Assembly: GCA_008632985.1 (NCBI GenBank)
Contig: QPGO01000367.1
Span: 1 to 38,125, forward strand
DNA from: Psammoneis japonica
Taxonomy: Eukaryota
DNA length: 38,125 nt
Direction of reading: 5' to 3'
In this document: one piece after another, positions 1,780 to 38,125 of the stretch
Layout: each line of letters opens with the position of its first letter
How positions within the stretch are numbered: position 1 is the stretch's first letter
Made by a program: the position numbers and the translations under genes
Notes under the pieces: model-generated
Told to the model about the DNA's origin: nothing
The model's input: the letters and a program-made list of their open reading frames with translations, nothing else
Database searches by the model: none

Positions 1780-2640
1780 ACAGCATCTTTTGCTGCTTCT
1801 TTCATTCTTCAGAAGAATGATTTGAGAAGAAACACAGGTGATGGGTTGCCCCAACCCTTTGACTTCAAGGACTGCACACTGTTTTGCTTCTTGTGTCATG
1901 GCATTGGGCATGGCCAGGCGGCCTCCACCAGCTGCCAAAAGCACTTCAAGAAAAAGCCATGGCATGCAACATTTCAACCAAGCTCAAAGAGTTGTGGCCC
2001 ATGAGAGAGCCGCCCTGGTGTGGTTCTGCATGCTGGAGTTTTTTTGCACATTCAGCCAGTGGAAAGCAAGCCCCAAAAACTAAAAAATGTACACTGCACA
2101 TTTGGCTTGTCCTTGTCTGCCACAAGTGTTGGAAGACAAGATGTTTGAGAGATGGGCACTTGCAGCCAGGCCCACCGTGCTTTGCACATCTGGGATGGAG
2201 GAGCATGCTGCAAGGGATGAAGATTGTGTCCCACCCTTGTTGTGGCATGCAGTGGTGTGGCACAATCAAGGTGGATGGCACTTGGGGTTGATGACTGCAA
2301 TGGACTTGTGCGAGCCACACAAATCGGCGGGAAGTGCGAAGCCTCCTGCTGGAGTTGGAGCTCCAGCTGAAAGAGTCACAGCAACTTTTCATGTTCTCAG
2401 CTGGCAGCAACACATTCGTCATTGGTCATTGGCCATTGCTTTCTCTGCTTGTTGATGTTCTTCACAAACAGTGCAGAGTGCAGCACCCCAGGAGATGCGG
2501 TCTGACAGCACCATCCAAAACGTGCACCGAAATCCGGGTTTTTCTCTTTGGTGTGTTTGTGTGCAAATTTGTTGCAGACGTGTGTCCTCATTCGAGGTGC
2601 ATGCAGAGCAAATGTGCACCGTTCTACAAAGAGTTTTGCA
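1780..2640. other. TpA- and CpG-depleted, TpG/CpA-rich domain 1 (degenerate sequence of unidentified origin)
   Basis: By eye, almost no TA and few CG, with overlapping Cys/His-rich ORFs in most frames. Edges are approximate. Confidence 0.7.
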
Positions 2641-2919
2641 TGCACCAGTTACACAGGAGGCAAACGAAAAAATTCGGGAGCTCGCTCGTTACGAAAACAT
2701 TCGGAGTTCTGCGGGACTCAGGGATCAGTCATGGTGGCGCATTTGTCTTGTTACACGACTTGGGTCCCAAAACACGATTCGCTTTTGGAATTCCAGCGAA
2801 AGCTCGACACGACACGTCATTCAATCCACCATGATGGAGAAAAGCAAATAATGGAAGCGGCGATTGCCTCTCGCCTTAAAGCAAAAGTAAAACGACACTC
2901 AACATAAAACCATTATTTT

Positions 2920-4830
2920 ATGATGATACGTTCCTCTGTTTTATCGCAGGTTCGACGACGTCACGTGGTTGCTGCCAGTCTCGTAAGCACTGGTGCTGCT
3001 GCAACGTACTACACTTTGAATAGCGAAAAGACGCTCGGGCTTCGTCGGCAGTCTCAATTTTGGGGACGAGTCTTTCCTGTTGTGGCCGACTATTATTGGC
3101 ATTTCGGAAGCAAGAGCCCTTATGTTAAATATCAAGAGTGGAGAAATGGCAGTGACGAGATGAAGATTGATAACACAAAGCAGCTTGCAGAGCTGCACAA
3201 GCGACACGCTCCCGAGATTCTTCAAGCCATGCTTGATTTGAAGGGACTTTATGTTAAATTGGGCCAGGTGTTGTCTGTCACCGCGCTTCCTATACCAGAC
3301 GAATACCGCGATCGTTTTCGGACGTTGCAGAGTGACGTACCTGGATACGAAGAATTTGAAGTTGTAAAGAAGGTACTGGAAGATGAGTTCAACACGGACG
3401 ACATTGAATCCATATTTTCCTTCATTGATCCCGTACCCTGTGGTGCTGCATCGATTGGACAAGCACACCGCGCCGTGCTAAAAGAATCGTCGGAAGATGT
3501 CATTGTGAAGGTTCAGTATCCTGACGCATCGTGGCAAGTGCCGGCAGATATTCAATGTGTAGGCGATTTGTTAAAGATTTGCGTTTGGACCGGTGTGGTC
3601 GAAGAATCCGCTGCCAACATGTCTTTTGGAGAATTTTCTCGACAGTTTCTCTCCGAGCTGGATTATACCACGGAGCAAAACAATTTGCAAGAAACCTACG
3701 AATCGTCCATCCATGATCCGGAAGCTCCGTATCGTAAACGAGGTGTGTTGGTGCCAGAGGTCTATCGAGATTTGTCTACTGAAAAGGTAATTACCATGTC
3801 GTATCTCCGGGGTCCGAAACTAGAAGAAGAAGCAAGGCGGCAAATGGAAATGCTCGGCATCGACACTAAACGAGGTATCGGTACTATTGTCCGTGATGCA
3901 GCTCGAGAGGCAGCCAGTGACAAGATTGACGAAGTCGACGAGGACACGTTTGCGTCCGAGGCTACATTGGCACCGAAAAGCTCATGGAAGGTGGCGCTCG
4001 CGAAACGGGTTGGAAATATTCTCGGCGTGGACAAGGCTCTCTGGACGATACGACAAGCGCGCAGAATCGTGCTCTGGTCTGTGGGGGCGACGGCTAGTAC
4101 AATTGGATGGGCAGGATGGATTCTGCCGCAGTCTTGGAAGGAGTGGAGCGAGTCACACGCTCAAGCATATCAGCAAGCCCAGCGCTTGGCTCTAACGCAA
4201 TCCTGGATTGACTCTTTATTCGATGTGCATGGCTACCAAATATTCCAAGCCGGTCTGTTTAATTCGGATTGTCATCCTGGAAACATTCTTGTGATTGAAG
4301 AGGACGACGGCAGTCCAGCGACTCGGTTGGGATTGATTGATTACGGCCAATGCAAACGTCTGACCCCATCCGAGCAACTTCGAGTCGCTGAATTAGTGTT
4401 GAGCGTCGCCAACAATGATTCGGAAGAAAAGATTGCGTCTGCCTTTCGCAATCTAGGCGTGCAAACCAAGAACGACTCGACCGAATTTTTGGCAGAAATG
4501 GCTCATCTCATGTTTGGACCGTTTAAAACCCAGCATTTGGACCATGCCTATCACAAAAAGTTACATGCAATGGATCGCATCACATACTTTCCAAAAGAGT
4601 TGTCCATGGTCTATCGAACGTCGCTGCTTCTTCGTGGTCTTGCTGTCTCATTACAAGTGAATGCATCCGTCAGTGAACAGTGGCGGAGGCATGCGCAAGC
4701 TGCTGTAGAGCGGTACGGCGACAAGCCAATAGAGATTGAAACCCGAGAAACGAAAACTGATGTTTCGTTTTCAAACTTGTTACGGCGAGGAGAGAAGGCA
4801 GTGGATAGTGGCATGACAGCGGCAGTTTAA
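2920..4830 (+). CDS. ABC1/UbiB/aarF-family atypical protein kinase
   Basis: 636-aa intact ORF with family motifs GLYVKLGQ, AASIGQAHRA, VIVKVQYP, ELDY..E, VPEVY..LST.KVITM, DCHPGNIL and LIDYGQ. The N-terminus is Arg/Ser-rich, resembling a transit peptide. Confidence 0.93.
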   Translation: MMIRSSVLSQVRRRHVVAASLVSTGAAATYYTLNSEKTLGLRRQSQFWGRVFPVVADYYWHFGSKSPYVKYQEWRNGSDEMKIDNTKQLAELHKRHAPEILQAMLDLKGLYVKLGQVLSVTALPIPDEYRDRFRTLQSDVPGYEEFEVVKKVLEDEFNTDDIESIFSFIDPVPCGAASIGQAHRAVLKESSEDVIVKVQYPDASWQVPADIQCVGDLLKICVWTGVVEESAANMSFGEFSRQFLSELDYTTEQNNLQETYESSIHDPEAPYRKRGVLVPEVYRDLSTEKVITMSYLRGPKLEEEARRQMEMLGIDTKRGIGTIVRDAAREAASDKIDEVDEDTFASEATLAPKSSWKVALAKRVGNILGVDKALWTIRQARRIVLWSVGATASTIGWAGWILPQSWKEWSESHAQAYQQAQRLALTQSWIDSLFDVHGYQIFQAGLFNSDCHPGNILVIEEDDGSPATRLGLIDYGQCKRLTPSEQLRVAELVLSVANNDSEEKIASAFRNLGVQTKNDSTEFLAEMAHLMFGPFKTQHLDHAYHKKLHAMDRITYFPKELSMVYRTSLLLRGLAVSLQVNASVSEQWRRHAQAAVERYGDKPIEIETRETKTDVSFSNLLRRGEKAVDSGMTAAV

Positions 4831-5552
4831 TTTTAATCTGAGCTCGTTAGAAATCAGGCTCTTCTGTTCTAAACTATGTTGTCGATAGCCTGACGTTGCT
4901 GCTCGCTTCGTGCTGGAGGTTGACAAAGTCGCCATCAAGTTTGTATGAAGCGACGGTGGAGCATTCAGATACTCCGTCATGGAAGTGCAAAAGACTTTCA
5001 CAATCCTGCGCTGGAGGATACGAAATATGGTTGACTTCTGACGGAGGAGCATTGCATCCGTTAGTCCACCGGTTCATCTTAGAGAATTCATCAATAGCTT
5101 TAGTATTGTATTGACCAGACTACAAAGCTGTTGATCGGACCATGTGAAAGCTATGATAGCTAGCTTTGGACCCGCTACTGTTGTCGGCGTGCTGTCCTCC
5201 CTTATCTTTGTTGTCATAGCTACAACTTTTTGCGACTCCTGCGACATCATGGACGCGAGGCGCAAAAGCATCTTTCTCGCGGTCCACAGTCTGGTCTGGC
5301 TCTGCTATCTACATAAGAACACTGTAGATGCCTTCTCCCAGACCCAAAGCTGGGATAGCAGGCGGGAGAGATGGGGGGCGATTAAAAGTTTCCTACGATG
5401 GTGGCTGTTGTCTGCGACAACAAGACGATGTGTGCACGTCTGCGGTCGATCGCGGTGGTTGCGCTGGGAACTCTGCGAATGTATGAACCTGCCTTTTTGT
5501 GAAATAACATCTCTCCTTTATTATTGATCCTACTTGTACGGTAGGGCCCTAG

Positions 5553-8285
5553 CTAAGATAAAATGTAGTCACTCCAGTCCAACCCACTAAAAAAGCTCAC
5601 CATCAAATCACCGATACGAGGAGCATTGACAAGCTTTGATTCTGGGCAGAAATCAATTTCACCAAGTACTTCCTCAATGCAATCCCATTCATAGTCCCAA
5701 TCAAAGGCCTTTTTGACTAGTTCAGCAAAGTCTCTGAGTTGACAAGCAACTGCAATGAAATCAATCCGAATCTCACCAAATCGGTCAACATCATGTCGAA
5801 CCGCTTCGCATGCTTTCTTGATGAAGACTTCGCACTCTGTCACATCATCCCACTCTGAGTAGTCCTTGTGTAAAACTACTCTGCAGAACTGACTTAAGTC
5901 ACTTGCACGAAGCATGCACGCCATGGATCGTCTGAAAGCGGTTTGCTGGTTACGATCATTGGTGTATCGATTTCGGGACGGCTGCATCCCGTTTTTCACT
6001 TTCATGTAGTCCAGTGCAACAGACACGTCGCGAATAGAGAGGCCAGTTCCTAGAAGAAAAGTCTTGGTAAAGTCCCCCTGGGATGAACTTTTGCCTGTCA
6101 TCCAAATCCCTGGAACCTTGGAGAAGATGCGATCGAGCTTCTCCAAGAATCCAAGTCTTTCCGCTACAATGTGCCTGCATCGCAGTGCGTTGTACAAATG
6201 CAGGACTTCACGTAAGCGTCTTCGAAGGTAATAAGTCGAAAAATGCGTACCAATAGAGACAAAGTACGCGGAATATGATCCTGCCATCAATGGATTCCAA
6301 TGCGAGACAGATACGGACGTGGCGGATACAGGCGGCCACTCTGGACGAGCTTCGTGAGCGTGCATCGCAAAAAAGTTTTTCAAAAGGCTTTTGGAATATG
6401 TTTGCGACGAAAGCTGGAGTTTGTGCATGTAGGAGACAGAAGCGGATTCTGCCTTTTCTCCGAGTCTTCTAACATGACTGTTTCCTTGCAGAGCCATGAT
6501 CGAAGTGAGTAGCGCGTGAAAACCAAAAGTGATAACCATGGGAACAGGGCCACCACGGTCATTCTGAAGGTATTCAACCAAAGAATACACTAGTGGAACA
6601 ACCTGAGGTATGCATGGGTTGTCAAGAACAGGAGGCTTAACTTCATTGCTACAAGCAGCAATGAGTTCTGGTAGCACCTCTGAGACTAGGAGATGGTCAA
6701 GGTCACCACGAATCTGTCTTGCAAAGTGCGTGTCTTCGTGCCATTTAAACTCAAACGTGTTGTCGCCAGCCAAAGCAACGCTCTTACATGCCTTTGCAGT
6801 AATATTTCTCGTTGGGTGCATGTACGAGAACACCGACTGAAGAAGCTTTTGAGTGTTAAGGATACACCGTCGATTTCCAATATATTTGTAATGGTACAGA
6901 AATTCCTCCCGAATCTTGTTGGAATCTTCTTCCAGAACAACATGGCAAACATCCGTTGCAAGCTTCTCAGCCTCTTCCAGCATAGTTTCCTTTTCCCAGT
7001 TCCCGTTCGGTAGGCCAAGTTTGGAGCCAAAGGCTTTGATAGCCTTGCTAGTATCAAGGCCCTCTATGGCAAAACAAGACTCCGCCACGTCTCCAATAAG
7101 ATGGGTGAGTAAGTGTGGATGCGACTGATTTGAATAGGAAGCGACTTCAGCGTATGCCTTGGACGCAGAAAGAGCAGGAGAGACAAAGACAACCGCCACC
7201 AAGTCGTAGAAGGACCGAATGTGCGGATGCTCCAGCGTCAGTTCCGCCCAAGTCGACTTGACGCAGTCCATGCAGATGTTAGTTGTGATAGCACCCTCCA
7301 TCAAGTAGACCATTAGTTGGTCATTGTCAAAGTCTTCAATACAAACGTGTTTGATAGTATCAAATCGCTCCCGGATCACGCCCATAAGACTGTCCATTGT
7401 CTCCAAGAACGCAATGCACTGGAACCGATCGTCCGCTCGGATCAAGTCTTCTTGTTGGGACATTGACAATGGCAGAGAAGTGCTTGGTGATGCTTGAGGT
7501 GGTGATGGTGGCCTAGTCGGTGCTTCTACTGCTTCAGAATCCAGCAAGTCTTCTTGTTGGGACGTTGACAATGGCAGAGAAGTGCTTGGTGATGCTTGAG
7601 GTGGTGATGGTGGCCTAGTCGGTGCTTCTACTGCTTCAGAATCCAGCTCGCTGTAGTCGAGATTCCATACATCGTGGTGGACGTCCTTGAGAGCATCAAA
7701 ACGCCCCCCTTGTACAGCAGCATTCCTTGTCTCTGACGCTTTCCCACACCCTCGACTGTTCAAACATTGCAGCTTTTTGGCAACAGCATTGGAAATCTTG
7801 AGAACATCGCGGCAATACTCGAGCACGGATATGATGTATTGGTGCCCCTTGCAGTGGTCCCCGTGCTTGCGGGCCTGTTCTTGGCGATGACGAATACTCG
7901 TATGGAGACAATCAAAGACGGATTGGTCCACGACAATGAGTTTTGTGCGTTTGTCGCGTCGTGCTTTGCTGCTTTTCTTCGTCTCGACACGTTCGGCAAT
8001 CCTCATACTCTGTTGCAGGATCGTTTCTGCGCCACGCTTGTAATCGTCAACAGACATTAGGCGATAACCTCGAGGGAGTAATTTGGCAAGTCCATCTCGA
8101 AAGGCCTCTGTAGCCTTCTTATAGCTAGCATAGACCCCCTTTGGCTGATGCTGCTGTTGATTGGACGACGACGACTCGTTCTCTCCAAAGCCAAAGTCGA
8201 AATCTGAAGGGGCTTTGTTGCTGTTATTTCGTTGGACGGGTCGTCCATCACTTTTGGATTTCTTTCTCCTCTTTGATGTTGACAT
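5553..8285 (-). CDS. DUF6604-like domain protein, 910 aa
   Basis: Intact long ORF. The N-terminal 'YASYKKATEAF...SIRHR...GHQYIISVLE', then 'GRFDAL', 'NPLMAG' and 'LHLYNAL', resemble the eukaryotic DUF6604 family. The family call is from motif recall, not a search. Confidence 0.7.
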   Translation of the reverse strand: MSTSKRRKKSKSDGRPVQRNNSNKAPSDFDFGFGENESSSSNQQQHQPKGVYASYKKATEAFRDGLAKLLPRGYRLMSVDDYKRGAETILQQSMRIAERVETKKSSKARRDKRTKLIVVDQSVFDCLHTSIRHRQEQARKHGDHCKGHQYIISVLEYCRDVLKISNAVAKKLQCLNSRGCGKASETRNAAVQGGRFDALKDVHHDVWNLDYSELDSEAVEAPTRPPSPPQASPSTSLPLSTSQQEDLLDSEAVEAPTRPPSPPQASPSTSLPLSMSQQEDLIRADDRFQCIAFLETMDSLMGVIRERFDTIKHVCIEDFDNDQLMVYLMEGAITTNICMDCVKSTWAELTLEHPHIRSFYDLVAVVFVSPALSASKAYAEVASYSNQSHPHLLTHLIGDVAESCFAIEGLDTSKAIKAFGSKLGLPNGNWEKETMLEEAEKLATDVCHVVLEEDSNKIREEFLYHYKYIGNRRCILNTQKLLQSVFSYMHPTRNITAKACKSVALAGDNTFEFKWHEDTHFARQIRGDLDHLLVSEVLPELIAACSNEVKPPVLDNPCIPQVVPLVYSLVEYLQNDRGGPVPMVITFGFHALLTSIMALQGNSHVRRLGEKAESASVSYMHKLQLSSQTYSKSLLKNFFAMHAHEARPEWPPVSATSVSVSHWNPLMAGSYSAYFVSIGTHFSTYYLRRRLREVLHLYNALRCRHIVAERLGFLEKLDRIFSKVPGIWMTGKSSSQGDFTKTFLLGTGLSIRDVSVALDYMKVKNGMQPSRNRYTNDRNQQTAFRRSMACMLRASDLSQFCRVVLHKDYSEWDDVTECEVFIKKACEAVRHDVDRFGEIRIDFIAVACQLRDFAELVKKAFDWDYEWDCIEEVLGEIDFCPESKLVNAPRIGDLMVSFFSGLDWSDYILS
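7443..7646. repeat. In-frame 102-bp tandem duplication (34 aa) within the DUF6604-like CDS
   Basis: 7443-7544 and 7545-7646 are identical apart from one substitution (cattg/cgttg). They encode LDSEAVEAPTRPPSPPQASPSTSLPLS(T/M)SQQEDL twice. Confidence 0.97.
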
Positions 8286-8476
8286 TGAAATTGTTTGGTT
8301 CTCGTCGGCTGATCTTTAGCGGCTCGTGGCGTGCTGCATTTATCGCAACATACAGTATGATGTTGTCGATTGTGTTGAGAAAGTTGATCGTTTTCATCGC
8401 TTCATGCTTCATCGCGGTTTTGGCGCCGCATGATCTATGTAATGTCGGTGTCCATGCTGTACATGATTTCTGCACA

Positions 8477-8627
8477 GAGGCAGGGGGGNNNNNNNNNNNN
8501 NGGGGGGGGGGCAGCAAAAAAGAAAAGAAAACAAGAAGGGGCACAAAACACTGAGGCAGGGGGGGGGGCAGCAAAAAGAAAACACAACAAGAAGGGGCAA
8601 AACACAAGAGCACCACTCTGCAGGTGA
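8477..8627 (+). repeat. Two ~75-bp purine-rich direct repeats with poly-G runs; assembly gap (13 N, 8489-8501) in the first
   Basis: gaggcag(G)n cagcaaaaa..gaaaa...caagaaggggca..aaacac occurs at 8477 and 8553. Confidence 0.8.
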
Positions 8628-10950
8628 AGCAAAAAAGGGCACTTGCCAAGGATGCCAACAAGCACATTGGCAATTTTTGCATGCTGTCCACACAAAATTT
8701 GTTTCATTTTTGCACTTCTTTTTGTGTGGGCAGCAGCCAGTGGTGACCACCACACCCTGCAGACAAAGCAGCTGTCGCCTGGTGTGATTTTTCATCAGCT
8801 TGCATTTTTGCTCCAAAGCAACTGAAACATGTGCATGCAAGCAAAGCCTCCCACTCATCACAATTTTTTCTTGAACATTGGTGTGCCCCCAATGGTGGCT
8901 GAGACTCGCACAATGCAAAATTGCACAGTCTCCAAATGTGAAATCTGTGTGAGTGCAGAGCTGGCAAATGCAAAGTCCATGCAAAGCTTGCATTGTTGAA
9001 ATCTGCAAACATTCTGCACATTTGACATTTTTGCAGCCTCTGCATTTGTGGACCCTGCAAAGATTCAGCAATGAGTGGAGAAATCTGGCTGACAAATGCC
9101 GCTGTGCATCACATTTGAAAGAACATTTCCACCAAACAATGTGTCTGTTTTTTCACATTCAATCCTGAAGATTTTGTGGACAGCACAGTGAGCAACAGCA
9201 AGCACAAAATGCCACGTCAATTTTCTCTGCTGTGAGTCAGCAAGGTGCAGAGGATGGTCACACAAATTGTGCAAAACTGTGTGGTTGCTGGTTGTTGAAT
9301 CACAATGAAAACAACCCACTCAAATTTTCCATTGTGCACCCACCAGGCAGTGCTGCACAAGTTTTTTCTTTCCAGGAGTGTTTGTGCAACTGTCTGTTCA
9401 TGTCAGTGCCCAGCACATTGGCTGGCAAAAGCCCAGCTGCATGAGACCCCATGATGCAAGCTGATGACAGGATCCAAGAGGTGTGTGTGGCAACAACACC
9501 AGTGTCAAAGCACATTGAACACATGCGATGCCTCGTTCACTTGCCCTCAATCCTCCGCTGTCAAAAAAAAGCAGGTGTCAATGTTTCAAAAGGGTTGGCA
9601 TGTGAGAGTGGCTCCATTGCTGCAACAAGGCACCATCGTTGTCATGGTTTTCAAGCTCCAATGCCCAAATGCTTGCACTCCTGTTTCTTTCATCTAATTT
9701 GGAACAAGCCACACTGCACAGCCAATTGACATGATGGATGATGGGCTCTCACACACACCAGAAGCAACATGCAATGCGTGCATTTGTGTGTGTCATCTCC
9801 ATCGTGCTTTGGCCACAAACTGCAGCCAACTCTAAAACAATGGCTGTTGTTTGTGAGCTGGCATGCCACAATTGTTCCAGCAGTGCAAGTGGCAAAACTG
9901 CAATCTCATCATTTCCCACACAACTGTTGACTCACACATCAACCAAGTTCTGCCATCAGCCACCTCACACACTCCTCCTCCTGTGTTTGAGTCTGCACGG
10001 CATTCTGAAAAATCAAAGAACACACCCACACAAGAGAGAGCAGTTATTCTGCAGACATTGGCACGTCAATGATGGTGTGCGTTCTCTCTTTGCACGCCAC
10101 ACGCAGCACCAGGGTTGTTTTTTTTTTCTGCAGAGGAGAAAACACGTGGTTTTTGCAGCTGCCTCTTTTGAGCCTGAGACTGGATGCTCATCTTGCTGGC
10201 ACTGTTGGGAAGGAAGTGATTCTCCACTCTGCCGCAACTCTTCTTCCCCAAATCACCATCTTGTGAATGCCATGCTGATGTTGTTCGAGATGAAGAAAGA
10301 CCGGTTCAATTTGAATTTTTTTGTGGTCTTTGTCTGAATGTAAAGGCTCTTCATTGTGGCGCATCAATTCGAGATGTGAAAGAGGAGATGAAGTGTCTGT
10401 GCAGAACAATTGTCAACCTTGTGTCCAGCAGAACTCCAAATTCCTTCGTAACGAGCTCCCGAAATTCGGAAAGGTTCAACGAGATTTAACACAACAGGTT
10501 CAACAAGATTCAACATGACAGGACAAGTGGAGAATCTCATCTGCAGTGCAGCGAAGATGGTGCAATGTTCACCCAGGCCTGGCACTCGCACTGCACCTGA
10601 CAAGATGACAGCAAAGGAAGTGGACAAATGCATGACACCCCAATCACTGCATTGCAAATCATCTCATCTGCAGTGCAGCGAAGATGGCACAATGGTTGCC
10701 CAGGCTCAGCACTCGCACCCACAACAACACGACAGCAGAGGAGGAATGACAATGACACCGGTCCAAGGAAAGAATTGTTGCCAACGATTTCGATTCTCCG
10801 CAAAAGAATTCTGGTGTCCACGGTCAATGGATGACCCGCAAATTATGTGCGCAAACCACACCCACTTTTTTGGTTGTTTGACAGAAATCACGACAGCCAG
10901 AGGGAGTGGTGTCTGGGTTGTTTGGCAACAAAAGAGACAACAAGGTGACA

Positions 10951-13654: not shown

Positions 13655-14283
13655 CAAAAAACATGTCGTTGTGGGAAGAGTTCCCAAGACTTGTAATTCT
13701 TAGTCATTTGTTGCAATGTGATGAGCAGTGCATTTCATCTCCTTTCCATTTGATCAATGGTGCCTTGTGCTTGCAGTGTAAAACATTCTGTTGCTCTGCA
13801 TCCTTGACATGAGACAGATGGGACTGAGGATGTGAAGGGAAAAACGCTGATGAAACTGAGCCCGGTTTGTACATTGGGTCTTAGAACGCAGCTTCATTTG
13901 CAGCCCTTGCGGTGTGAGTTGGCAAGTGACCCGAGTGGCATGAAAGTTTCACCCTTCGATAAAAGCGAGACTGTTGTCCTCTCCAGCTTGCACTGCACCA
14001 TAGACCGCTGCACTCATTTTCAGTCCTGCCGCATCCCGTGTGACAACACTGCAACAAAAGCCCCTGTTCCATGCACAGCGGCATTGTCCTTTGGCTTGCA
14101 CCATTGCATTGGACTGTCACACACAATCTCAATTCTAGTCTTTCCAGCTTAAATTGACAAACAATGGCTCTGAATGTTTTCCCTTGCAATGAAAGGAGGA
14201 TTGTGGTCCTCCAATTTGTGCGGTGGACCTCTTTGCATGCAATTTCAGGCCTGTCCATTTGGTTTGAATTAACAACAAAACTG

Positions 14284-26768: not shown

Positions 26769-27144
26769 TCTCAAAAATATTAGACTTTGTCGACCATGCT
26801 TTGTTAAACTGGCGTTTACTCCTTGGTTGACTCCTCCTCTACGCTCTCTAGCTACTCTCTAGCTCTAGAGTAGAGAGTAGTAGCCACCGGTAGAAGGCAA
26901 AGGGCTAGCTAAAGTAGCTCACAAAACACGTCAAAACACCCGTAATTGTACTGACCGACAGACCGACATTTAAAAATTGTAACCGTTACGACCGTTATCG
27001 GCGCTGCTGCAACACGGACAAACGGCAACAACAAAAAAACAAAACATCTGGGAAGAGGATCCTAACAAGGAACCAGGGAACGAGATACCGGTAGGCAACT
27101 GTAAAAGCTGTAACACAAATCTGAAACAACATACCATAGCTGCC

Positions 27145-28218
27145 ATGCGGAGACAGGGTGCAGTTTTCTGTCTATGTGCAGTTTGGTTGGCGTATACGCT
27201 TCTCCAACTGAAATCAATCATCTCTTTTTCTGGACGCAGCCCATCAAGTAGCGGTTCTGGTAAAGTTGTGTTAAAAGTAACTGCAGAGGATCTTGATTTG
27301 CGAAAACCCCTGGTGCTCTTGTCCAATGCGTGCTCAGGAAGCAGTTTCCAACTCGATTTTGCTTGGCGTCTGGTAGCTCGTCATACAGGAAGGCACCCAG
27401 AATCGTATGCAGATGTAGTCGGAGAGCAGGAAGCAGGTGAATTCTTACGAACCACCTATAATCATGCTAATCGCTTGTACAATTACACGCTTAGCACAAC
27501 GGATCCTTTTCGGGCCGACAAGGAAATGGTACACGAAACGTATCGTCTGCTTGTTCTGGATCAAACCAATGCCTCGCGAAGAATCATGGCTCCCAAACTG
27601 TTGGGTTCCCAACTTACAGAGGGCGTGGCAGAGGCGCTATCCGAGCTTGGAGCTAGGGTTGTGATTACCTTTCAACAGAACTTTTTGAAACAACGAGTTT
27701 GCATGATTCGTGATTGTTTTGCCTTTGCAAACGAAGGTATTGCTGTGAACGAGACGGGAGAGAAATCTCTATACTGTCATGACCGTCGAGGTGTGCCAAA
27801 CATTACGCACTTGGCAAAATTCAACGTTACGCATCATGACCTGCAATTGAAGAATCGAATGGACCGATTAGGCTGTCAGCAGTCGAAAGATGTTTACCTC
27901 GAAGAAAAGGCCAAGAAGTGGATGAAAACGAGCGACTACCTTGTTTTTGACGGCGAGAGGCTCGCTGCGTTTCAGCAATACCCATCCTCGTCGCCTGAAT
28001 TTAGAAACAGCTTGTCAGCCTGGAAGGAATTTATGCGAGGATGGGGTATCCCCCCCAACAGGACGTTGATTCTTGACGAAATGATGAAGGAACAAGGAAC
28101 TAGATCAACGAAAAGTGGCGTGAGCAAGAATGTTTACAACATCGCCGAGATTCAAGCCTTGTACGAGGAGTTAGCTCAAGACCCTGGGTCTTGTGATTGG
28201 AGATGGATGCTAGGGTAA
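27145..28218 (+). CDS. Sulfotransferase-like (P-loop, Stf0-type) type II membrane protein
   Basis: 357-aa intact ORF with TM anchor. 'LVLLSNACSGSSF' resembles the 5'-PSB loop and 'RVVITFQQNFLKQRVC' resembles the 3'-PB 'kvI.l.R.NlL.q.vS' segment. Divergent, so function is tentative. Confidence 0.55.
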   Translation: MRRQGAVFCLCAVWLAYTLLQLKSIISFSGRSPSSSGSGKVVLKVTAEDLDLRKPLVLLSNACSGSSFQLDFAWRLVARHTGRHPESYADVVGEQEAGEFLRTTYNHANRLYNYTLSTTDPFRADKEMVHETYRLLVLDQTNASRRIMAPKLLGSQLTEGVAEALSELGARVVITFQQNFLKQRVCMIRDCFAFANEGIAVNETGEKSLYCHDRRGVPNITHLAKFNVTHHDLQLKNRMDRLGCQQSKDVYLEEKAKKWMKTSDYLVFDGERLAAFQQYPSSSPEFRNSLSAWKEFMRGWGIPPNRTLILDEMMKEQGTRSTKSGVSKNVYNIAEIQALYEELAQDPGSCDWRWMLG

Positions 28219-28479
28219 AACTGTAGTGTCTTGTCGAAAAGGAAAGAGGCGACCTCTACAGCATGCGGTGTTTACAGATAAGATGCCGTACTGTGCATTG
28301 GATCAGGTATTCAATACAATAGAACAAACGTAGAGCAATTCAAATTAAAAGTTTACATCATGGTTCGGAAAAAGTGCGTTGCTTGCTAAGATTTGTCCTG
28401 TGTTATCGGACGACTCCATTCTAACGATTCGGTGGCAGATGAACTGGAAATTATTGGGAGCTCTGGGCTGCTGTCAAAC

Positions 28480-30260
28480 TCTGGATGTTGGTGTGTTGTC
28501 ACGTGTTTTTGTTTTTTGCAGTGATCTGTTCAGTCGTTTCAAGGATGAGTTGAAGATTTGCTCAAGTGGGTTCAAGTGTTTCTTGGGATTTGTCTTGCAA
28601 AAGGAGCAAGCAGTGTTGCCAAGAAGAAGGACTCTGATCTGTGATCATTTGTGTTTGCATGTTTTTGTGGTGCAACAAGGGGGCGCCGTTCATTCTTGGT
28701 GTTGGCAAAGAAGACAAAGGAGTGGAGTTTGACATGGAAAAGAGAATGCATGACATGTGGTTGTTGATCCATGCACATGTGAAAGTGCTGCAGAATGAAA
28801 AATGCAATGGGCCAGAGGCACTGGTCATGTGTTCTTGCCAGCAGCACCACAAAACACAGCCTGCTTTGCACACATGATTGTGAGATTGTGTCAGCAAGCA
28901 CATGGCAATGTGGACATTTTGGCTTTGAGCTGCAAGGTGTCATGGGCTGCAACATTTTTTTGCACAGATGACAAACATTGAGGGAAAGGAAAGCTCTGCA
29001 AGCTTCAGTTTGGCACCTCCTCTTGTGCCTTTGAAAATTTGCTGAGTGGCCAGCTGTGAATGACAAGCTCACTTGCCACTTGGAAAATGACAACATTTCA
29101 GTCCTTTCTTTCCACTCTGGCTTTCAATGTTGAAGATCTGTGACACATTGCTGACACCTTGATTTGCACTGTTCTTGCAGCTGGTGCCAACCCAGGGCTG
29201 TGGACAAAGCTTGCCTTGCACATTGTGCTCACACAGTTTGACCTCAAATCAATGTGCAATGCAAGAGAGCTGTGACAATGAGTGCTGGCACCTGCTTGAG
29301 ATTGTGGCACCAAACTCAACGCCCCAAAACAGTTGCCGTGCCAAACTTTTTGCCAAAGTCTCTTGTGAGGACAATCTTTTTCTGCCAGGGCTGTGGAAGG
29401 TGTCAAAGTTGTTTTGCCATTGAAGTTTTTGGAGCCCCACAAGTGCTGTTTTTCTCCTTTCCTCTTTCTTGTCATTTGTGTGGAAGACATGATGATGCAC
29501 ATTTTGCCCTCTTGCTGGCTCAAAGAAATGACATGACATTGCACACACTGTGCCATTTTCTGCTGGTGGTTTTGCAGCACACACAATGGGCTGTGGCAAC
29601 AGCAACATGGTCAGTGACACTGTGCTCTTTTTCAATCACAAATGCTTGTGTGTGTGTGGACAAAAATCCCAGTGTGTTTTTCTCCTTGTCTCAAGAAGTG
29701 CCCAGCCCCTTTTTTCTTTGAGGGAGTGAGTGGGGCAAACTGCGCCAGATGCTGCAGTGGACATCCATGGGAGGGACACAGTCTTGTGACTGTCCCAACA
29801 TGCAGCAGGGTAGAAATTGGCCAATGGAGGAGTGGAGGTGTGGGCAAAGATGTCGACAACATTTTGCTGTGCACGCAGGAGGGGGGGGGACGACCAGCAA
29901 AACACAACAACAACCACAAACCTCCAATCTCAAGCAAATTTTGGAGTGATTGCACCCAAATGAAAGTGAAGTGGATCCAATGGACATGAGGTGCTTGAAG
30001 GCACATGTGCAGGCAATGCTGTGCCAGGAGCTGGAAGGCCGCCCAGCGCATCAGCGCCCTGAGGTGACTGAGTTGTGTGTGTGAGGCAAGAGGTCACAGC
30101 ATCAAAAGCCGCCACCACATGCACAGCTTGGCAAAAATGTCATCCAAACCCTGTCCCCCACAAGAATGCAATGGCAGAAAAGGCTTGGACCAGGCTGATG
30201 GCACAGCAGTGGCTGCGCAATTCAAAAACACAGGGTTTTGTGGTTGGCTGACAAAAAAGC
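28480..30260. other. TpA- and CpG-depleted domain 4, between the sulfotransferase-like and LicD genes
   Basis: Loss of TA/CG after ~28480, with an abrupt return at ~30270 (taataatgat). Confidence 0.8.
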
Positions 30261-30482
30261 GCGTTCAAAATAATAATGATATTCATTCACGAATAAATAT
30301 AACGTCTAACGGCTGCCTATTTATTGTTCTTTCTGAAGCTACGTATGATGGCATTTGTTTCTACAAAAATTGCGCCAAAGAAAAAAGCCATGGAATAGAG
30401 CCCGCCTTTTTTTTTGTGCAAACCAAGTGTTGCACTCGACAACCACAATCGACATTTGCTTTTTCAGTGTGGTCAGGAGAGC

Positions 30483-32752
30483 ATGGCGAAAATGAAACGT
30501 CTTTTTCTGCTTCGTGCAGTTTTGTTCATGGCAGCATCATGCGCACTCTTTGGTATCTTCTTTTCGCACATGATTACGCAGCGGCATCTCTCATCCTTTT
30601 TGCCGACCAACATGATGTATGCGATTGAGCAACAAAAACAACGCCGTACTTCTTCTTCATTGGAATATCAGTACTATTCTTCCAAGAACGACAAGACTCA
30701 ACATGATTCTAGCTTCAGCACCTCTTCCCCCCGAAATCTACACAAGCACTACCCACTGGTTTGTCAAGAAAACCAAGGCAACACTTCGTGGTCTGTCCCT
30801 TCTGCGACTTTGGCTTGGATTGAAATGACGTACGAGTACAAGTCGGGACCACCGAACGATTATGACTATTACTGGTCGGGACATCGAGCATTCTCGTTAG
30901 ACCCACTTGTCCCGATAGAATCCTTGCTGTCGACAATCCAGGCGTGTCTGTACACAACGCTTGAGCGTTGGTGGGATTTGAGCCTTGAGAACAATATAAC
31001 ACGATGGTCCGCGCACGGTGGAACTGCCATGGCTAGCTATTGTCACCATGCCATGAATGGATGGGACGATGATGTCGATATTACAGTAGCATCGTGCAAG
31101 ACGATCAATGATTTGTGGGACAAGGGCAAGAACGTTTCCGATGTGTATCCAGACATTCCCGAAGAGCGGTACACCAACGATGTCCATGTGGGACGATTAA
31201 TTCGCAAGGACTTGATACTCCTGCGCGGTGCGCTTGCCAAAAAAGAGAGAGAATATATGAACTATTTCAAGCTCAAACTGGTGGACCAAACCAGAGTTGT
31301 ATCTGGCAAGGACTTGAGCGGTATTGATATTCAGTGCTTTGATGAGTTTATTCCCTTCAACGAGAAAGAATCCATGGATCGATCCAACTTCAAGGCGTTT
31401 TTGAAGGGAGACCAAGAATTGTCGGTTGTGCCATTTGGACCAACGTACATAAAGGTTGTTCCTTTTGACGTGCTTGAAGAATATGTGTTTTATCGATACG
31501 GAAAACGGTCTTGGTGCGACTTTCCCTACGACAAAACAAATAAAAAGAATATAACGAACTCCTCTCGACAGCATCCTCGGTCCTCACAAATGGAAGAGGC
31601 AGTGTCCAAATGGTACACGGCGCCCAAACACCGTGAAGTGTGGCTAGAACAGGTTGGAAAGACGTCTGGTGACAAGCTGACCAAAGAACGAGTTCCTAAT
31701 TTAAATCATGTGGAAGTGGATAATTCTATTCAGCAGCATCCTTGTGCAGAATCGGCGCAACTCCTCAAGCCAACAACAATGCTAATGATGGACCTACTCC
31801 ACTCAAGGTTGTCGCATTCAACGCCGAGCGCGGTACACACTGGGACAAATTTGCAGACATGGTTCGAACCATGAAGGATTTGCAAAAGCCAGATGTCATT
31901 GTTTTGAATGAGATGGATATTGGCATGGCAAGGTCAGGGAACGTGCATACGACCCGCAAACTCGCGTACGACTTGGGTATGAATTATGCGTGGGGACTGG
32001 AGTTTGTCGAACTGACTCGGGGCAGCGAAGAAGAACAGAACCGGACCGTGGGTATGGAAAACTCACTCGGATTGCACGGAAATGCTATATTGTCCACTTG
32101 TGAAATCTATGACCCCATCATTGTCCGAGACGATCTTGCCGATATTTATTTTTCGAATAAAATCTCCTGGGAGAACGCCGATGGATATGAAAAGAGACTT
32201 GGTGGACGGATGGCACTCTTTGTTCGAACCGGAAACAATGTGTCATTGTCTGGTGATGATGCGACGTCGTTGGGAGATGATGGAAGAAGGCATATTGTTG
32301 TTGGGTCAGTACACAAACTCCAGCATAAGCATCGAATACAGCTCTACAAATACTTTGGTGCAGGCACACCTCCATCTGACTTTCAGCCCACGGCTCAAAT
32401 GCTGAATGGGACGGGCTTTGATCCTGACCAGCTACCCAAACACCAAATGGGAATCATTGCTGCCGGTGATTTGCAGGACAGGAAATTCTGTGGTTGGTAC
32501 GGACTGCGCAATCTTGACTTGGAACCAATGCCCTTGCGAAAAACGTTCCGTTCCGATTGCACCAACAAGGACAGCCCCGCCGGATATCGAAGAGGGGATT
32601 TCTTCTGTGGAACCATGGAAGTGGCCGAGCAAGACAAGAGCATTGCACCATGCTACTACAGCCGCAATGGAACGGAGATGACACAAATTGCCGACCACGC
32701 CATTATACAAATCATGCTGCGGCCCTACCATACTGAATCCTCTACCTTCTGA
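30483..32752 (+). CDS. LicD-family phosphotransferase fused to an endonuclease/exonuclease/phosphatase (EEP) domain; one -1 frame change near 31745
   Basis: ATG at 30483 with TM anchor. LicD motif 'WSAHGGTAMASYCHHAMNGWDDDVDI'. The second frame gives EEP motifs 'LKVVAFNAERG', 'PDVIVLNEMDIGMARSGN', 'GLHGNAILS', 'RLGGRMAL', 'AAGDL' and 'ADHAII'. The EEP frame has no ATG upstream of its first motif. Confidence 0.75.
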
Positions 32753-33603
32753 GCATTTTCGTAATCACTGACGGTGCCCAACTAGAATACAGATGAGCTC
32801 AGTCCTCGCTACTCTAGTTGTGTGGTTAAGAAGCAGTGACTTGCTTTCATACTTGCCTTCACACTTGCACACCATAAAACTCTCTACTTTAGCGAGAGTA
32901 GCGTAGAGGGTACCGTACGAGATGAGAGAGACCTTTGGACACAACGGGTTAAGGGGGTCCCAGTCCTAGAATTTCTTCATACGAGATTATGCTGCTTTGT
33001 TCTACTAATAGAAGTAGCATGGACGAGGAGCGGATCTTGCTTGCTTAGCGAGCTTAGCTTGCTAGCTAGAGAGTACGGTAGGTGTTGGCACGGTTCTGGG
33101 GGAAGTCTCCAGCCAGCTGCTGGCTGAAGAATCTTGTGTAGTCTAGAATAGAATTTGCACCGAAAGAGTCTGTCAATCTGTGCGTTGGGGGGGTTGGTGA
33201 ACGCTGGACAGACTCGTCGTCTGTTATGTGCGTAAAAATTGTGCCGGCAAAACCCCCAAATGCACTGAAGCTGGCTGGCTGGCCAGCTGGCTGACGGACG
33301 CCTCTTCAGCGAAGAACAGCAACACATGCATGGACATCACGCACTGTGCCTGTGCCTCGCTTGACACCCCTTTTGCTCATTCACATGGCAGAGTCGGGGC
33401 TTGCACAACACAAGAAGGTGGAGCAAGGGACAACAACTTTTCCCACTGGCCCAGCATGTTCCAACCCCAGGCAGGGCTTGACATGACACGAGCCCACAGA
33501 ATTCTTTGTGTGAGCACCACAGTTTGTGCATTGGGTGACAAGCATGTTCGTCTTTGACACCCAAAAATGAGCGACCAATGTTTTGCAGCACAGCTGCACC
33601 ATG

Positions 33604-33636
33604 CCCCCCCCCCCCCCCCCCCCACACACACACACA
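33604..33636 (+). repeat. Poly-C run followed by (CA)n
   Basis: About 20 C followed by acacacacacaca. Confidence 0.9.
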
Positions 33637-36600
33637 ATTCTCCAGGTGTGCTGTGCATGGCAAGCCAGCTCCCAGCACACAGAAAAGCACCCCAAAAAAA
33701 TGACCACAAGGGCCTTTGCCAGATGTGCCACAATGCAGCAGCCACATGAGGGCTCTTGCAAGGAGGGTGCACCCAACAGATGAGAATGTCTCCACAGAGA
33801 GCCCAGAAAAGCAACCAAAACAAAAGCAGCCCCGTTGTTGACAAAACATTTTTTGTTCTGCAGCTGAGGTGGTCAAGATGACAGTTGAGCCAGTGGGGTG
33901 CCAACAACAATGATGAGAACTCTGACATGTCTCAGAATGCCAAAACAAAGATTTTGTTCCCAGGTGATTTTTTCTGAGAATGAAGGTCAAAAAGCACACA
34001 AGTGTCTGACTTGCTTTCTTTCTTCTGCCCAAATGCTCTTTCTGCAATGTGATCAAAAACAACAAGATGGATGAAGAGCTCATCTCAATGATTTTTTCAA
34101 AAATTGCCAGGTGAATGAAGACAAAAAAGAGAGCAGACAACAAGCAAAAAAAGAAAGCCAAAGTCACAGGGTGTGGCTGCACAGCACTTGTCCACAGCAT
34201 GCACCTGGCTGTCACTCACATTGCACATCAGGGCAGCAACAGGCTGCTTTTTTGCTTGCTCTCATGCTAAAATTGAGGTTTGAAGCTTGCTGAAGCAGAG
34301 CTTGCATCTGCAGATCTTCTCCTTTTTGAGCAGTGCTTTGCCAAGGACTGGTTGCACCCCACCACATGCCAGTTTTGAGTTGATTGCATCTGTGCCACAC
34401 TGGCCAAGAAGGATTGATGAGCACACAGAGAAGTGCCAGTCAAGCTTGGAAGGTGAACATGATTTGTCACAGGAAAGCTTCTGTTGAAAGTGCTGTCAAA
34501 AGAAAACACACAAAGCAGAAGTTGGGAACAGCAGCCACTTTCTCAAAAAAACACCTGGTGCCTCACATTTGGAGATTCTCCCACCAAGTCATGGACCAAA
34601 GACCCTTTGGAAGTGCACTCAAGAAAACAGCACCTTAAATTCACCATTGATTTTTGCTGGTGCAGCTGGTTGTTCAACAAATGCAATGCAAGAGAACCCA
34701 ACTGCACAACACACACTGCAAAGAAACTGTTGCCTTTGCAGTGAAGAACAACAACACATGTGTGGACATCACATGCTGTGTGTGGCTGTGCCTTGCTTGA
34801 CACCTGAATTGCTTGTTGATGTTGCAGCTGTTGCAAAGTCAGTTGATTCATTTTGCTTGATCATTTCAAAAGCACAGACCTGTCCCCTTTTGCTTGCAAA
34901 GACTTCATGGCTGTCTTTGATGCTTTGCCCATGATTCTGTCATCATTCACAATGTTGTCTCTTGGAGCAACAGACAGGCAGAGTGGCCTTGATCCAGCCA
35001 CACATGTCTGGCTGCTGGTTGACTGTGTCAAACATCACAGTTTTGTGCAATCCTTCTGGGGCAAGGTTGTGGTGTTTTCAATCTGCTTGGCAACCAAATC
35101 TCTCTGCACTTGTTGGCTTCTACAGCTTCTTCTTTTCTTGCTGTTGAAAGAGCTTTGCAATGATGGCAGCAACCTCATGGTGCTTTCTTTCCTCCTTTTG
35201 AACAATGGTCTTGTGGGTGTGCATGTCTCTGGTGGGTGACACCTTGTCAACTTTGGCACACTCTTGGCCATTTGTTGTCTTCTTGTGGCCAGCCACCACC
35301 TTTGCAGTGTGCTCTTGCTTGGTGTAAATTGAGTTCAAAATGGCAACTCAAGCAAGCTGACCAGTCAGGTCCTTCACAGCAGACTAAAGCTCAGCACACT
35401 CCAAGTCCAGCTGCTTGGCACTGAGTGCGTGTGGGTCCTGGCAGCCCAGATCATTTCAGCTGCACTCTTGGCTGGTGGTGCTGAGAAGCAAGAGTGCTCA
35501 CTCAGCCTGTGCAACCAGGCTTTGCTCAATTGTTGCCTTGTTTTTCAGTCCATTCTCAAGACTGACATTTTGACAACATTGAGAAATCAAATTGGCCTCC
35601 ACACACTCTCTGAGTTGTCTTGGCTTGTTTGGGCCAAATTTTCTCTAGCTGAGCAAGCGCCTTTTTTGTGAGTTGGTCAGATGCTTGATTTCTTTTGCTT
35701 GTTTTGGTTGAGAAGCACATCCTTTGTTGCTCTTTCTTGAGCTTGCAGCTCCTCAACTTTTGCTTTGAGCTCTTTGATTTCTTTCATCTTTCAAAGCACA
35801 GGCCAGCTCCACAAACACTTTTTTCTCTTTGGCAGCATCTTCCTTGATCTTGGAGGTCTCCCTCAGCAGCATCAAATCTGTGTTTGAAATCTTGGATGCC
35901 AAAACAATGCCCAGCATGTTGCTGCAGCTGACAAACTGCACCTCAAGATGAGAGCTCATGCAGCAACCAGCAACCCAACACCTGACTTGTTTCTTTTCTG
36001 CCATGCCAAGCTCCTTTTAGAGCTTGAGCCTGGTGCATGTTGCATTGTCTTTGTGCTCTTGCATTCCTGTTTGAGGCTTTCTCCACATCTTGCTGGCCAC
36101 TGCTGGTGGTTTGATGTGGGCTTCAAAGATTGTCATGCATTGCCCAGCTGCAGCAGTGGGCTCTGCTGTTGTGACCACAGCCAGCACAGCATGGCAGCTG
36201 GATCCATGCAACAATGTCTTGACAAAGGTGCCCTTGTTGGGGGCAGACCAGGTCAGCACCAATTTCAAGGAAACTCTTCCCTTTTGACATTTCACTTCAA
36301 TGGACTTGGGTTGCACCAACATGAGGAGGTTGATGACCTCTTTGGTTGCTGCTTGTGTGACAAAGTGTGTGGTGAGTTGGAAGCACACGATGGCTCTGTC
36401 TTTGCACACTGGACAGCTGTGGGAAAGTCAGAAAAGTGTGCCTTCACAACATCTTTCAGGGCCTTGAAAAATGACAGCATCACAAAGAGGCAGCAAAGGC
36501 TTCCAGCACAAACTCTCCCTCCTTCCAGGAAATCAAGGTGAGAACATGCCAAGCACCCAAACAACATGGGGAAAAAAACCTTTTTCACCTGCTTCAGACT

Positions 36601-37447
36601 GTGGACACCACACACATCATGCTGTTGAGGGACTTGGCTGGGTGGCAGATTGTTGTCTTGGGCACTTTGTCACTTTGTCAGCAGCACCAGACAGAGTGCA
36701 ACAACACCAGTGCATGGCAGTGCTTGTTTGAGTCTCTGGCATTCTCAGCCACAAACCACCAATTGCATCTGCAACATCTCATCCAGCAGTCCATTTTTGC
36801 TCATCATGGTGGGGTTTGGCAAAGGTGAGTCATGCAAGTGTCCTTGATGGAAAGGTTGCTCAACAGGACCACAAGGGCAAGCTCTCTGCAGCATGGCAAA
36901 AAGTGGAGTGCCAAATGCTTCTGACCCAAACATGGCCCAGGTGTGAGACTCAACAGAACAGGCAGCAGCTGTGAGTGCCTTGTGTCACACGCATTCAAAG
37001 AATGGAGACCATGACACCAGAAACATGGCTCCACACACCTGCAGCACTCAGCAACTCAGCTGTGCTGTGACTCTGGTGGGTGGTGCTCTTTGCAAAAATT
37101 GCATTTTCTGATCCAACATGTGACCTCAGCTCCCAGTTGAGGTGACAACACTTGCCATTGTCACACTTGCATTGGTGTGAAAAGCATTGAGAGAAAATGA
37201 TCAACTCCCATTTGGGTGGCCAGAAATCTCCTGCACCTCAAGCATGCTGCTGCAGCCAAGTGCCACTCTGATGCATTGCACATGGGCGGGTAGAACTTCA
37301 CTTCTTCCAAATCAAGCTTCAAAAGAACAAGCACCCAGCGTGCATCAACCACATTTCTTGGCAGGACTTGGAGGTGTTAATTTGGACAGCGCCACTTGTG
37401 TGATTTGTTGATGCAAAGAGGGTCAATGGCGATGCTCACCAGCACAT

Positions 37448-37468
37448 TCTCTCTCTCTCTCTCTCTCT
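37448..37468 (+). repeat. (TC)n microsatellite
   Basis: tctctctctctctctctctct. Confidence 0.9.
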
Positions 37469-38125
37469 GAGCTGTGCATGCTGAAACTGCCTGAACCTCA
37501 CCAAGGCCACAATTTGGTGCTCTCTCATGTGGCTCCTGTCAACAACATGAGAGGCACCTGCCTTGTGTGCCTTGGAGATGGGAGTGAGGCTCAACCAGCT
37601 GTGCTCAACTCAGAAAAAAGGCAAACAGGGCAAAGCAAGAGCTCTTGTTTGTTCTGATGTGCAGAGGGTTTAATTGCAGCTGCCAGTGCCCCCCCCCCTG
37701 TCTGGTTTCATTTGTCACATGCATTCTTGCTGTCTGAGTGTCACTCAGGTGGCCATTTCTTTTTGAATCCATGCTCTTCAAATGTCAATTGTCACATTTT
37801 GTTGACAATGCACAGCACCCATGTGGTGTCTCAGAGAGAAGCAAAATGAAATGCCACAGCCTTTGTGTCATTGTCAACATGATCTGCTCTCCAACATTTT
37901 TCTGAAGATGCCAGAAGCACTTTTCTTGTGCTGAAAGTGTGCAAGGAAATGGAAGCACCTTTGGCACTTCCAAAAAATTGAAACAGGCTTTTTTGCCTGT
38001 GCAAAGCACACCAAAGTGGTTCCTGTCATCTGCCAAGTGCAAACATGTGATGGGCAAATCAAATGCGCCGCAATCATTGCTGACAAAGCTGCTCCACAAG
38101 GATGTGAGAGCCAGCCATTTGTCAA

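Follow-up and report, generated by a model that had tools for sequence, protein, structure and literature searches.

Background

In the repeat-induced point mutation (RIP) of fungi, C>T changes fall mainly at CpA, create TpA, lower the GC content and strike both members of a duplicated pair. Another kind of chromosomal hypermutation has been described in Bigelowiella natans, where two integrated viral regions received 231 of the 302 single-nucleotide mutations recorded in mutation-accumulation lines; with a single exception, the mutations there were A>G or T>C changes at TpA, and their rate was ~1000 times background (10.64898/2026.01.13.699255). The authors of that preprint, Mettrop et al., propose adenine deamination directed against foreign DNA, with an ADAT2-like enzyme as the candidate, and its main text also refers to the preference of ADAR for a 5' U/T (10.64898/2026.01.13.699255). 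In diatoms, silent repeats are described as CG-methylated via DNMT5a, and many species carry DNMT4, which is related to the fungal RIP factor RID (PMC9998398). In the literature that we searched, there was no report of domains free of TA and CG or of TpA hypermutation in diatoms, nor, before the 2026 B. natans preprint, of any chromosomal, context-specific A:T>G:C hypermutation. Here we describe such domains in a 38,125-nt stretch of the diatom Psammoneis japonica (contig QPGO01000367.1 of assembly GCA_008632985.1, positions 1 to 38,125 of the forward strand; hereafter the window), in which DNA further than a few hundred bases from any active gene has lost nearly all of its TA and CG, and we compare them with these known systems.

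TpA- and CpG-depleted blocks in the window

Over the whole window, the observed/expected ratio (o/e) in sliding windows is 0.31 for TpA, 0.54 for CpG and ~1.5 for TpG/CpA. The original prediction, made from the letters of the sequence, described five blocks poor in TpA and CpG that take up about half of the window, and this was borne out both by sliding windows and by a two-state hidden Markov model (HMM) on TA and CG starts (emission rates 0.010 versus 0.088 per base), which called six matching depleted segments that together make up 17,556 bp, or 46% of the window, and retain 53 TA and 122 CG in all. Giving the residual TA and CG as counts of dinucleotide starts, these are block 1 at 1744-2497 (754 bp; TA 2, CG 8), which lies between an FG-GAP/Kelch gene and an ABC1 kinase gene; block 2a at 8461-10446 (TA 4, CG 21), with a 13-N gap at its left edge; block 2b at 12998-17642 (4645 bp; TA 23, CG 52); block 3 at 19370-22966 (TA 13, CG 11), which begins with a (TGGT)n(TGGA)n microsatellite and ends within an EMP70/TM9SF fragment; block 4 at 28453-30259 (1807 bp; TA 1, CG 15); and block 5 at 33359-38125 (4767 bp; TA 10, CG 15), which continues past the window end. 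What had been predicted as a single second block proved to be TA-poor throughout but not uniform, since the 2.5 kb at 10447-12997, between blocks 2a and 2b, form an intermediate sub-block with a TA o/e of 0.10 (13 TA) and a CG o/e still at 0.54 (98 CG). The GC content of this sub-block rises to 0.54, in line with a loss of TA alone.

The o/e of the depleted segments is 0.01-0.07 for TA, 0.05-0.20 for CG and 1.7-2.0 for TG and CA, with TpG/CpA at ~1.8-1.9, as against 0.52-0.67 for TA and 0.89-1.02 for CG in the normal DNA between them, which we call islands. The GC content is nearly equal in islands (0.468) and blocks (0.478); it stays near 0.48 because the gain of GC from TA>TG/CA and its loss from CG>TG/CA are similar in size. 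A smooth, unimodal TpA distribution had been named as the outcome that would speak against separate domains, but counting TA and CG in 200-bp windows gives a bimodal distribution, whose modes lie at 0-1 and 18-20. Three or fewer TA plus CG were counted in 67 of 190 such windows, whereas a mononucleotide shuffle gave no such window, its minimum being 16. The longest run free of both dinucleotides measures 633 bp (28687-29320), and the tetranucleotide TGCA is 2.8-fold enriched in the blocks.

Mutated and live copies compared

The origin of the blocks can be read from paralogues within the window, which were found by self-BLAST. In the first case, pair A, a dead duplicate on the minus strand of block 2b (14284-15891) corresponds to codons 1-534 of a gene for a 910-aa protein, together with the preceding 95 bp, and its live counterpart, also on the minus strand (6684-8380), is of normal composition and forms part of that gene (5553-8285). 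The two align over 1578 nt with 83.4% identity and 149 gap columns. The 55 TA of the live copy are found in the dead copy as TG (26), CA (24), TA (1) or other dinucleotides (4), and its 85 CG as TG (36), CA (32), CG (8) or others (9), so that the outcomes are strand-symmetric at both kinds of site. Sites that were already TG or CA remained largely unchanged (111 of 128 and 97 of 109). Per A, the frequency of A>G is 0.464 after T versus 0.052-0.077 after A, C or G; per C, that of C>T is 0.423 before G versus 0.059-0.078 before the other bases (0.059 at CpA). Contexts other than TA and CG are altered at 4-12% of sites, transversions amount to ~3.3% and non-target substitutions to ~9%, and AT-versus-GC double differences number six. 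The changes are spread over the codon positions as 92:57:93, which indicates that the dead copy is unconstrained.

In the second case, pair B, a copy at 9503-10100 in block 2a duplicates 17448-18060, the 3' flank of a D-glutamate cyclase gene, and the border at 17642 falls inside the homology. To the left of this border both copies are depleted. To its right, the 21 TA of the normal copy face TG (9) or CA (6) in the depleted copy (9690-10100), and the 16 CG face CA (6) or TG (4). Pairs A and B have the same orientation and offsets of ~7.5-7.9 kb, from which we infer an old tandem duplication, whose complete genes would have remained normal as its redundant gene fragments decayed. The spacer between the duplication halves showed no homology by blastn or by purine/pyrimidine 28-mers, and most of the block DNA is without a detectable partner, even as purine/pyrimidine sequence.

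Where two depleted copies can be aligned with each other, adjacent TG/CA double differences are frequent, making up 6 of 13 double differences in a 452-bp tandem repeat (11020-11926, within the intermediate sub-block), 4 of 8 in the left part of pair B and 2 of 3 in the repeat 10534/10661. These TG-versus-CA differences show that the same ancestral TA and CG were resolved independently in each copy, after duplication and in place.

The third case is a C-terminal pseudogene fragment of an EMP70/TM9SF protein of ~55 codons (22822-22989, plus strand; Pfam E 2.2e-7, and E 6e-11 to 2e-9 by tblastn with four homologous proteins), whose homology passes the border at 22966 into normal DNA. It has His or Cys where the four homologues have Tyr, and a deeply covered paralogous contig reads, in its loose end, TAC and CGAG where the window reads CAC and CAAG. 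No upstream exons were found in the window by tblastn with four of the 10 homologues found by HMMER, 22822-22989 being the sole match, and a word-indexed protein search for longer homologues gave nothing.

When every TA and CG in island DNA was converted at random to TG or CA in silico, the result correlated with the block spectrum at r = 0.986 over ten strand-symmetric dinucleotides, as against 0.900 for unconverted DNA, and it predicted a CA+TG fraction of 0.242, compared with 0.229 observed in the blocks. The GC excess and AT deficit left over after the simulation fit TATA>TGCA. The blocks are normal DNA mutated by TpA and CpG transitions.

Properties of the mutation process

We refer to the two kinds of change as the TpA arm and the CpG arm. 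The TpA arm is further advanced, 54 of 55 TA having changed in pair A as against 77 of 85 CG. The rate of CG>TG/CA is 13-17 times that of other C sites, and TpA has mutated at least ~30 times as fast as A in other contexts, a lower-bound estimate at saturation. Strand-coordinated editing was considered and rejected, since runs tests were not significant for the TA outcomes (22 runs versus 26.0 expected, P = 0.16) or for the CG outcomes (37 versus 34.9 expected), and the pattern looks like many single-site events rather than processive bursts. In the intermediate sub-block the arms are uncoupled, TA being gone and half of CG left.

Set beside the marks of the described systems, A>G and T>C changes at TpA giving TpG and CpA, as in B. 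natans, are seen at 50 of the 55 sites of pair A, other contexts having changed as well, and the high rate is confined regionally, with a bimodal density and sharp borders, yet the identified targets are duplicates of resident genes and not viral or foreign. The marks of RIP were absent: its signature of C>T at CpA, with new TpA and a lowered GC, was not observed, and only one duplicate was mutated, the live copy at 6684-8380 keeping all 55 TA and 85 CG. An excess of CG>TG/CA (68 of 85 sites converted) accompanied by segregating CpG/TpG variants is what the decay of 5-methylcytosine leaves behind.

Borders of the blocks

TA and CG are spaced ~10 bp apart until the last island base (position -1), and the first TA or CG inside the block then lies at +155 to +315 for the borders 8461 and 19370, while for the border 28453 it lies at +49. 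Transitions of 100-200 bp had been predicted, and while they are indeed abrupt, they are sharper than that, mostly under 50 bp. The borders at 17642 and 22966 both fall within homologous sequence. Since they cut through duplicated sequence, the domain must be set by position and not by the origin of the sequence. Near the ABC1 gene the two arms end at different places, with TA absent up to ~2625 and CG back from about 2311-2498. The 314 bp upstream of the gene at 2311-2625 thus hold 12 CG and no TA, and the TA-free domain comes closer to the gene.

The border at 8461 adjoins the 13-N scaffold gap, with poly-G runs on either side of the gap (8484-8606). A direct repeat of ~49 bp (8502-8550 and 8559-8606) also stands at this left edge of block 2, and the scaffold join may affect the border there.

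Contigs and polymorphism

Contigs of the X1 sample, at a flat word depth of ~59, reproduce the blocks and bridge their borders, and one of them (25632-33123) crosses both borders of block 4. The blocks are not high-copy. Contigs were seen to break at the microsatellite of ~25 units that lies 43 bp into block 3 (19413-19524) and at a C20 run followed by (CA)n in block 5 (33604-33623). In two comparisons of 3.4 kb each, X1 differed from the window at 12 and 13 places of block DNA. For largely island DNA there were 0 differences over 1.4 kb, 3 over 1.0 kb and 7 over 7.5 kb, four of these seven being within block 4. Among the in-block differences listed, which come from 40 of the 170 differing places, 10 of 17 are CpG<->TpG/CpA transitions and one is a TG-versus-CA pair. 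The CpG arm is still active.

Genes of the islands and contents of the blocks

Each island consists of one or a few long, mostly intron-free genes with a flank of ~65-600 bp. Upstream of block 1 lies the FG-GAP/Kelch protein gene (3-1358). The island at 2498-8460 carries the ABC1 kinase gene (2920-4830, plus strand) and the gene for the 910-aa protein (minus strand), which has a weak DUF6604 match and whose coding region contains a 102-bp tandem duplication (7443-7647; 2.0 copies, 99% identical). The island at 17643-19369 carries the D-glutamate cyclase gene (17817-19304, minus strand; PF07286, E 1.3e-54), with a 98-nt GT-AG intron at 18588-18685, the sole intron directly seen in the window. 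It is skipped by one contig of run X2, which joins 18587 to 18686, and in crossing the intron as a splice this run resembles complementary DNA. Within 17001-37000, X2 contigs are confined to islands, and the missing cover of blocks was not taken as evidence of silence. The island at 22967-28452 holds a GT47 exostosin gene (23285-24592, minus strand) and the open reading frames (ORFs) 25584-26132 and 27145-28218. Over 23700-24630 several X1 contigs match the GT47 gene with 85-95% identity and indels, which points to GT47 paralogues at other places in the genome. The last island, at 30260-33358, holds the plus-strand ORFs 30414-31874 and 31742-32752, which overlap in different frames, have no Pfam match and could belong to a single gene that has an intron or a frame shift. 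It also holds a short element at ~33100-33290, whose summed contig depth is in the thousands against ~59 and which is flanked by CCAGCCAGCTG-like inverted motifs. This element, possibly a miniature inverted-repeat transposable element (MITE), has normal TA and CG although it lies ~100 bp from a depleted block. Searches of the window for tRNA genes and Rfam families found none.

Among 8,000 candidates scored, 2,079 relatives of the ABC1 kinase were found at E <= 0.001. Among the 120 matches listed, those named by organism are all diatoms at 49-58% identity, and they include Odontella, Seminavis, Fragilaria, Amphora, Mayamaea, Cylindrotheca, Nitzschia and Thalassiosira; metagenome proteins among these matches reach 70-73%. 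These matches place the window in a diatom or a very close relative, and Bigelowiella was rejected as its source. A scan of metagenomes with the ABC1 protein returned no related loci, and an alignment-based scan returned 80, which are 25-64% identical.

The island DNA outside long ORFs (5,755 nt) has a TA o/e of 0.69 and a CG o/e of 0.99, and this normal composition of non-ORF DNA implies that the protection of islands is not due to coding selection. The prediction that every intact gene lies outside the blocks holds for all genes recognised by Pfam, and fails for an open frame of 436 codons at 12344-13651 (plus strand) in the TA-depleted sub-block. This frame encodes 8-9 intact Cys-rich repeats of GACC type with a single Tyr, and it is out of frame with an upstream Pro/Ala-rich open frame (11496-13106, plus strand), the shift lying near 12340-12490. 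It matches 45 proteins at E <= 0.001 (best 1.2e-30), the few named ones being bacterial (Eisenbacteria, Phycisphaerae). We estimated the chance of an accidental frame of this length at well below 1e-4 per start, allowing for TGA as the only stop left and for the enrichment of TG. The frame is probably a real gene, recently silenced or still used, and may encode a surface protein, the gene being in decay or acquired horizontally.

From all blocks, 115 open pieces with a length of 80 aa or more were compared with Pfam, as were 85 pieces of 25-79 aa from block 3, and the EMP70 fragment, which is of host type, was the sole credible match. Matches to Ndufs5, SIP1, COX15 and DUF1924 were rejected, each being under its Pfam cut-off. 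The targets that could be identified in the blocks are duplicates of resident genes.

Discussion

We hold with moderate confidence that the blocks are ordinary DNA that was rewritten in place, and only outside transcription units, by changes of TpA to TpG or CpA and of CpG to TpG or CpA. The starting material would have been spacer, gene duplicates that were dead and a repeat-protein gene in decay. As diatoms methylate silent repeats, we read the CpG arm as the deamination of 5-methylcytosine in silent, CG-methylated DNA. Cytosine methylation cannot remove TpA, and the loss of TpA therefore calls for a second process, A:T>G:C at TpA. This arm is probably a process of the same kind as the TpA-specific A:T>G:C hypermutation of B. 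natans, and its simplest chemistry would be the deamination of adenine, or another mutagenic modification, at the palindromic TpA. The state of chromatin or transcription would aim both arms or exclude them, so that a gene with its flank of ~65-600 bp stays an island. The host-gene targets, together with borders that run at gene ends through homologous sequence, favour such aiming by state over the recognition of foreignness or homology. The original prediction saw in the dinucleotide composition a fossil map of heterochromatin or methylated domains. The paralogue pairs do reveal a mutational fossil defined by position, and its CpG half fits methylation; its TpA half did not arise from cytosine methylation, and the domains of the two processes differ in part (10447-12997 and ~2311-2625).

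Several observations weigh against this reading in whole or in part. TpA being palindromic, A-directed and T-directed chemistries give the same products and are indistinguishable. Unlike in B. natans, the 115 and 85 block pieces yielded no viral or transposon domain, be it of a reverse transcriptase, an integrase, a transposase or a capsid protein. The frame-preserved repeat gene of 436 codons lies in TA-depleted DNA, and a restriction to silent DNA may be too simple. X1 is a single contig sample that may share data with the assembly, its difference types were drawn from a part of the differing places, and the polymorphism inside the blocks speaks to the CpG arm alone, TA being almost exhausted. 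Finally, the 80 metagenome loci related to ABC1, which are short and gene-dense, contain no 500-bp window with a TA o/e < 0.2 and TG/CA > 1.5.

Two rivals concern the chemistry of the arms. A single deaminase of dual specificity, attacking both A and C and drawn to silent chromatin, would produce both arms at once, and it is attractive in that the arms overlap over most of the domain, both yield TG or CA, and ADAT2 enzymes are cited as deaminating both A and C in DNA (10.64898/2026.01.13.699255). We nevertheless consider it unlikely, as the arms are uncoupled in 10447-12997 and ~2311-2625, TA loss is fuller than CG loss (54/55 versus 77/85), and the geometry of the contexts differs, A wanting a 5' T and C a 3' G. 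Alternatively, the TpA arm may be directed at thymine, where a modified T of the 5-hydroxymethyluracil (5hmU) or 5-formyluracil (5fU) type, made by a TET/JBP-like dioxygenase, would pair with G and give T>C. In the palindromic TpA its products equal those of A deamination, and the uncoordinated single-site outcomes look less like processive enzyme bursts than like a standing base modification in decay. The 5hmU of dinoflagellates has both a TpA preference and the mispairing chemistry. On the other hand, the literature searched offered no sign of such a base in diatoms, and we give this route a small but real chance.

The remaining rivals concern what directs the changes, or whether they took place at all. 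A RIP-like trigger, in which the sensing of homology marks repeats for point mutation, would be in keeping with the duplication elsewhere in the window or genome of at least three block segments and with the presence in diatoms of DNMT4, the relative of RID (PMC9998398). What contradicts it is that the live copies were spared and that the high-copy element at ~33100-33290 has normal TA and CG; moreover, the borders at 17642 and 22966 lie inside homologous sequence and no partner can be detected for most of the block DNA. RIP, which creates TpA, also has the opposite chemistry at this dinucleotide, and we regard such a trigger as quite improbable. It could instead be argued that a bias against TA and CG acts on the whole genome and that purifying selection alone preserves the genes. 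The TA o/e of the islands (0.52-0.67) is indeed somewhat lower than in the four closest related loci (0.64-0.73), but this view is poorly compatible with the normal non-ORF island DNA, with switches of composition within tens of bp, and with synonymous and flanking sites that are not purged, which leaves it very little credence. The same poor compatibility applies to an artefact of sequencing or assembly, such as modified bases misread as TG or CA. The library type of the runs is without record and one border stands at an N gap, yet X1 contigs at flat depth cross the borders, the dead gene copy has gap columns and non-target substitutions besides its transitions, and EMP70 is present as a fragment of 55 codons and not as a misread whole gene. 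We find an artefact scarcely credible.

Returning to the rewriting of ordinary DNA outside transcription units, a broader proposal can tentatively be put forth, which we find possible though doubtful: diatoms, and perhaps the algae of the stramenopile-alveolate-rhizarian (SAR) group in general, may mark silent chromatin with a second heritable and mutagenic modification at TpA, beside CpG methylation, that is aimed by chromatin or transcription and not at foreignness. If this is true, any DNA that leaves a transcription unit would be erased to within tens of bp of the gene ends, sequence alone would map long-term silent chromatin at base-pair resolution, and the 'antiviral' hypermutation of B. 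natans would be one face of a general disposal of silent DNA. Several questions become testable, namely whether chromatin, transcription or homology is the director, which base is attacked, and whether the process is a genome defence or a by-product of an epigenetic mark. The answers bear on pseudogene decay, genome size, and the birth and death of genes in major marine primary producers. There is a practical side too, in that the blocks mask homology and give long spurious ORFs because TGA is the sole stop remaining in them.

Comparison with known systems

The RIP of Neurospora resembles the process described here in killing redundant DNA by context-specific transitions and in leaving sharply bounded, aberrant domains, but the window shows TpA destroyed, GC held steady and the live copy spared. 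The decay of methylated CpG around the CpG islands of genes in vertebrates and plants shares the excess of CG>TG/CA, the polymorphism and the CpG-normal genes; it accounts for one arm only, and both the depletion to 0.05-0.20 and the sharpness of the borders in the window are extreme by comparison. RNA hyper-editing by ADAR and DNA editing by APOBEC/AID likewise give deaminase-type transitions with a neighbour preference. Their clusters are strand-coordinated, whereas the outcomes in the window are uncoordinated, and the changes here are fixed in place in chromosomal DNA, with borders inside tandemly duplicated sequence.

The closest likeness is to the inserts of nucleocytoplasmic large DNA viruses (NCLDV) and virophages in B. 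natans, where TpA turns into TpG or CpA in a regionally confined manner and where the long-term trace consists of 124 TpA-depleted, CpA+TpG-enriched clusters rich in ORFs that cannot be annotated (10.64898/2026.01.13.699255). This likeness suggests the same chemistry taken to saturation in a diatom lineage. The two cases differ in lineage, the window belonging to a stramenopile and B. natans being a rhizarian, and in saturation, the TA o/e of the blocks being 0.01-0.07 compared with a Rho of 0.45 in the NCLDV region of B. natans (10.64898/2026.01.13.699255). They also differ in the loss of CpG seen here, the term 'CpG' being absent from the main text of the preprint, supplements aside (10.64898/2026.01.13.699255). 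The targets in the window consist of spacer and dead host-gene copies, in which no viral or transposon domain was found, as opposed to the integrated viral DNA described in the preprint, and the borders stand at the ends of gene units. Thus, what the window adds to the B. natans report is the coupling to CpG decay, dead host-gene copies as targets, and borders precise to tens of bases.

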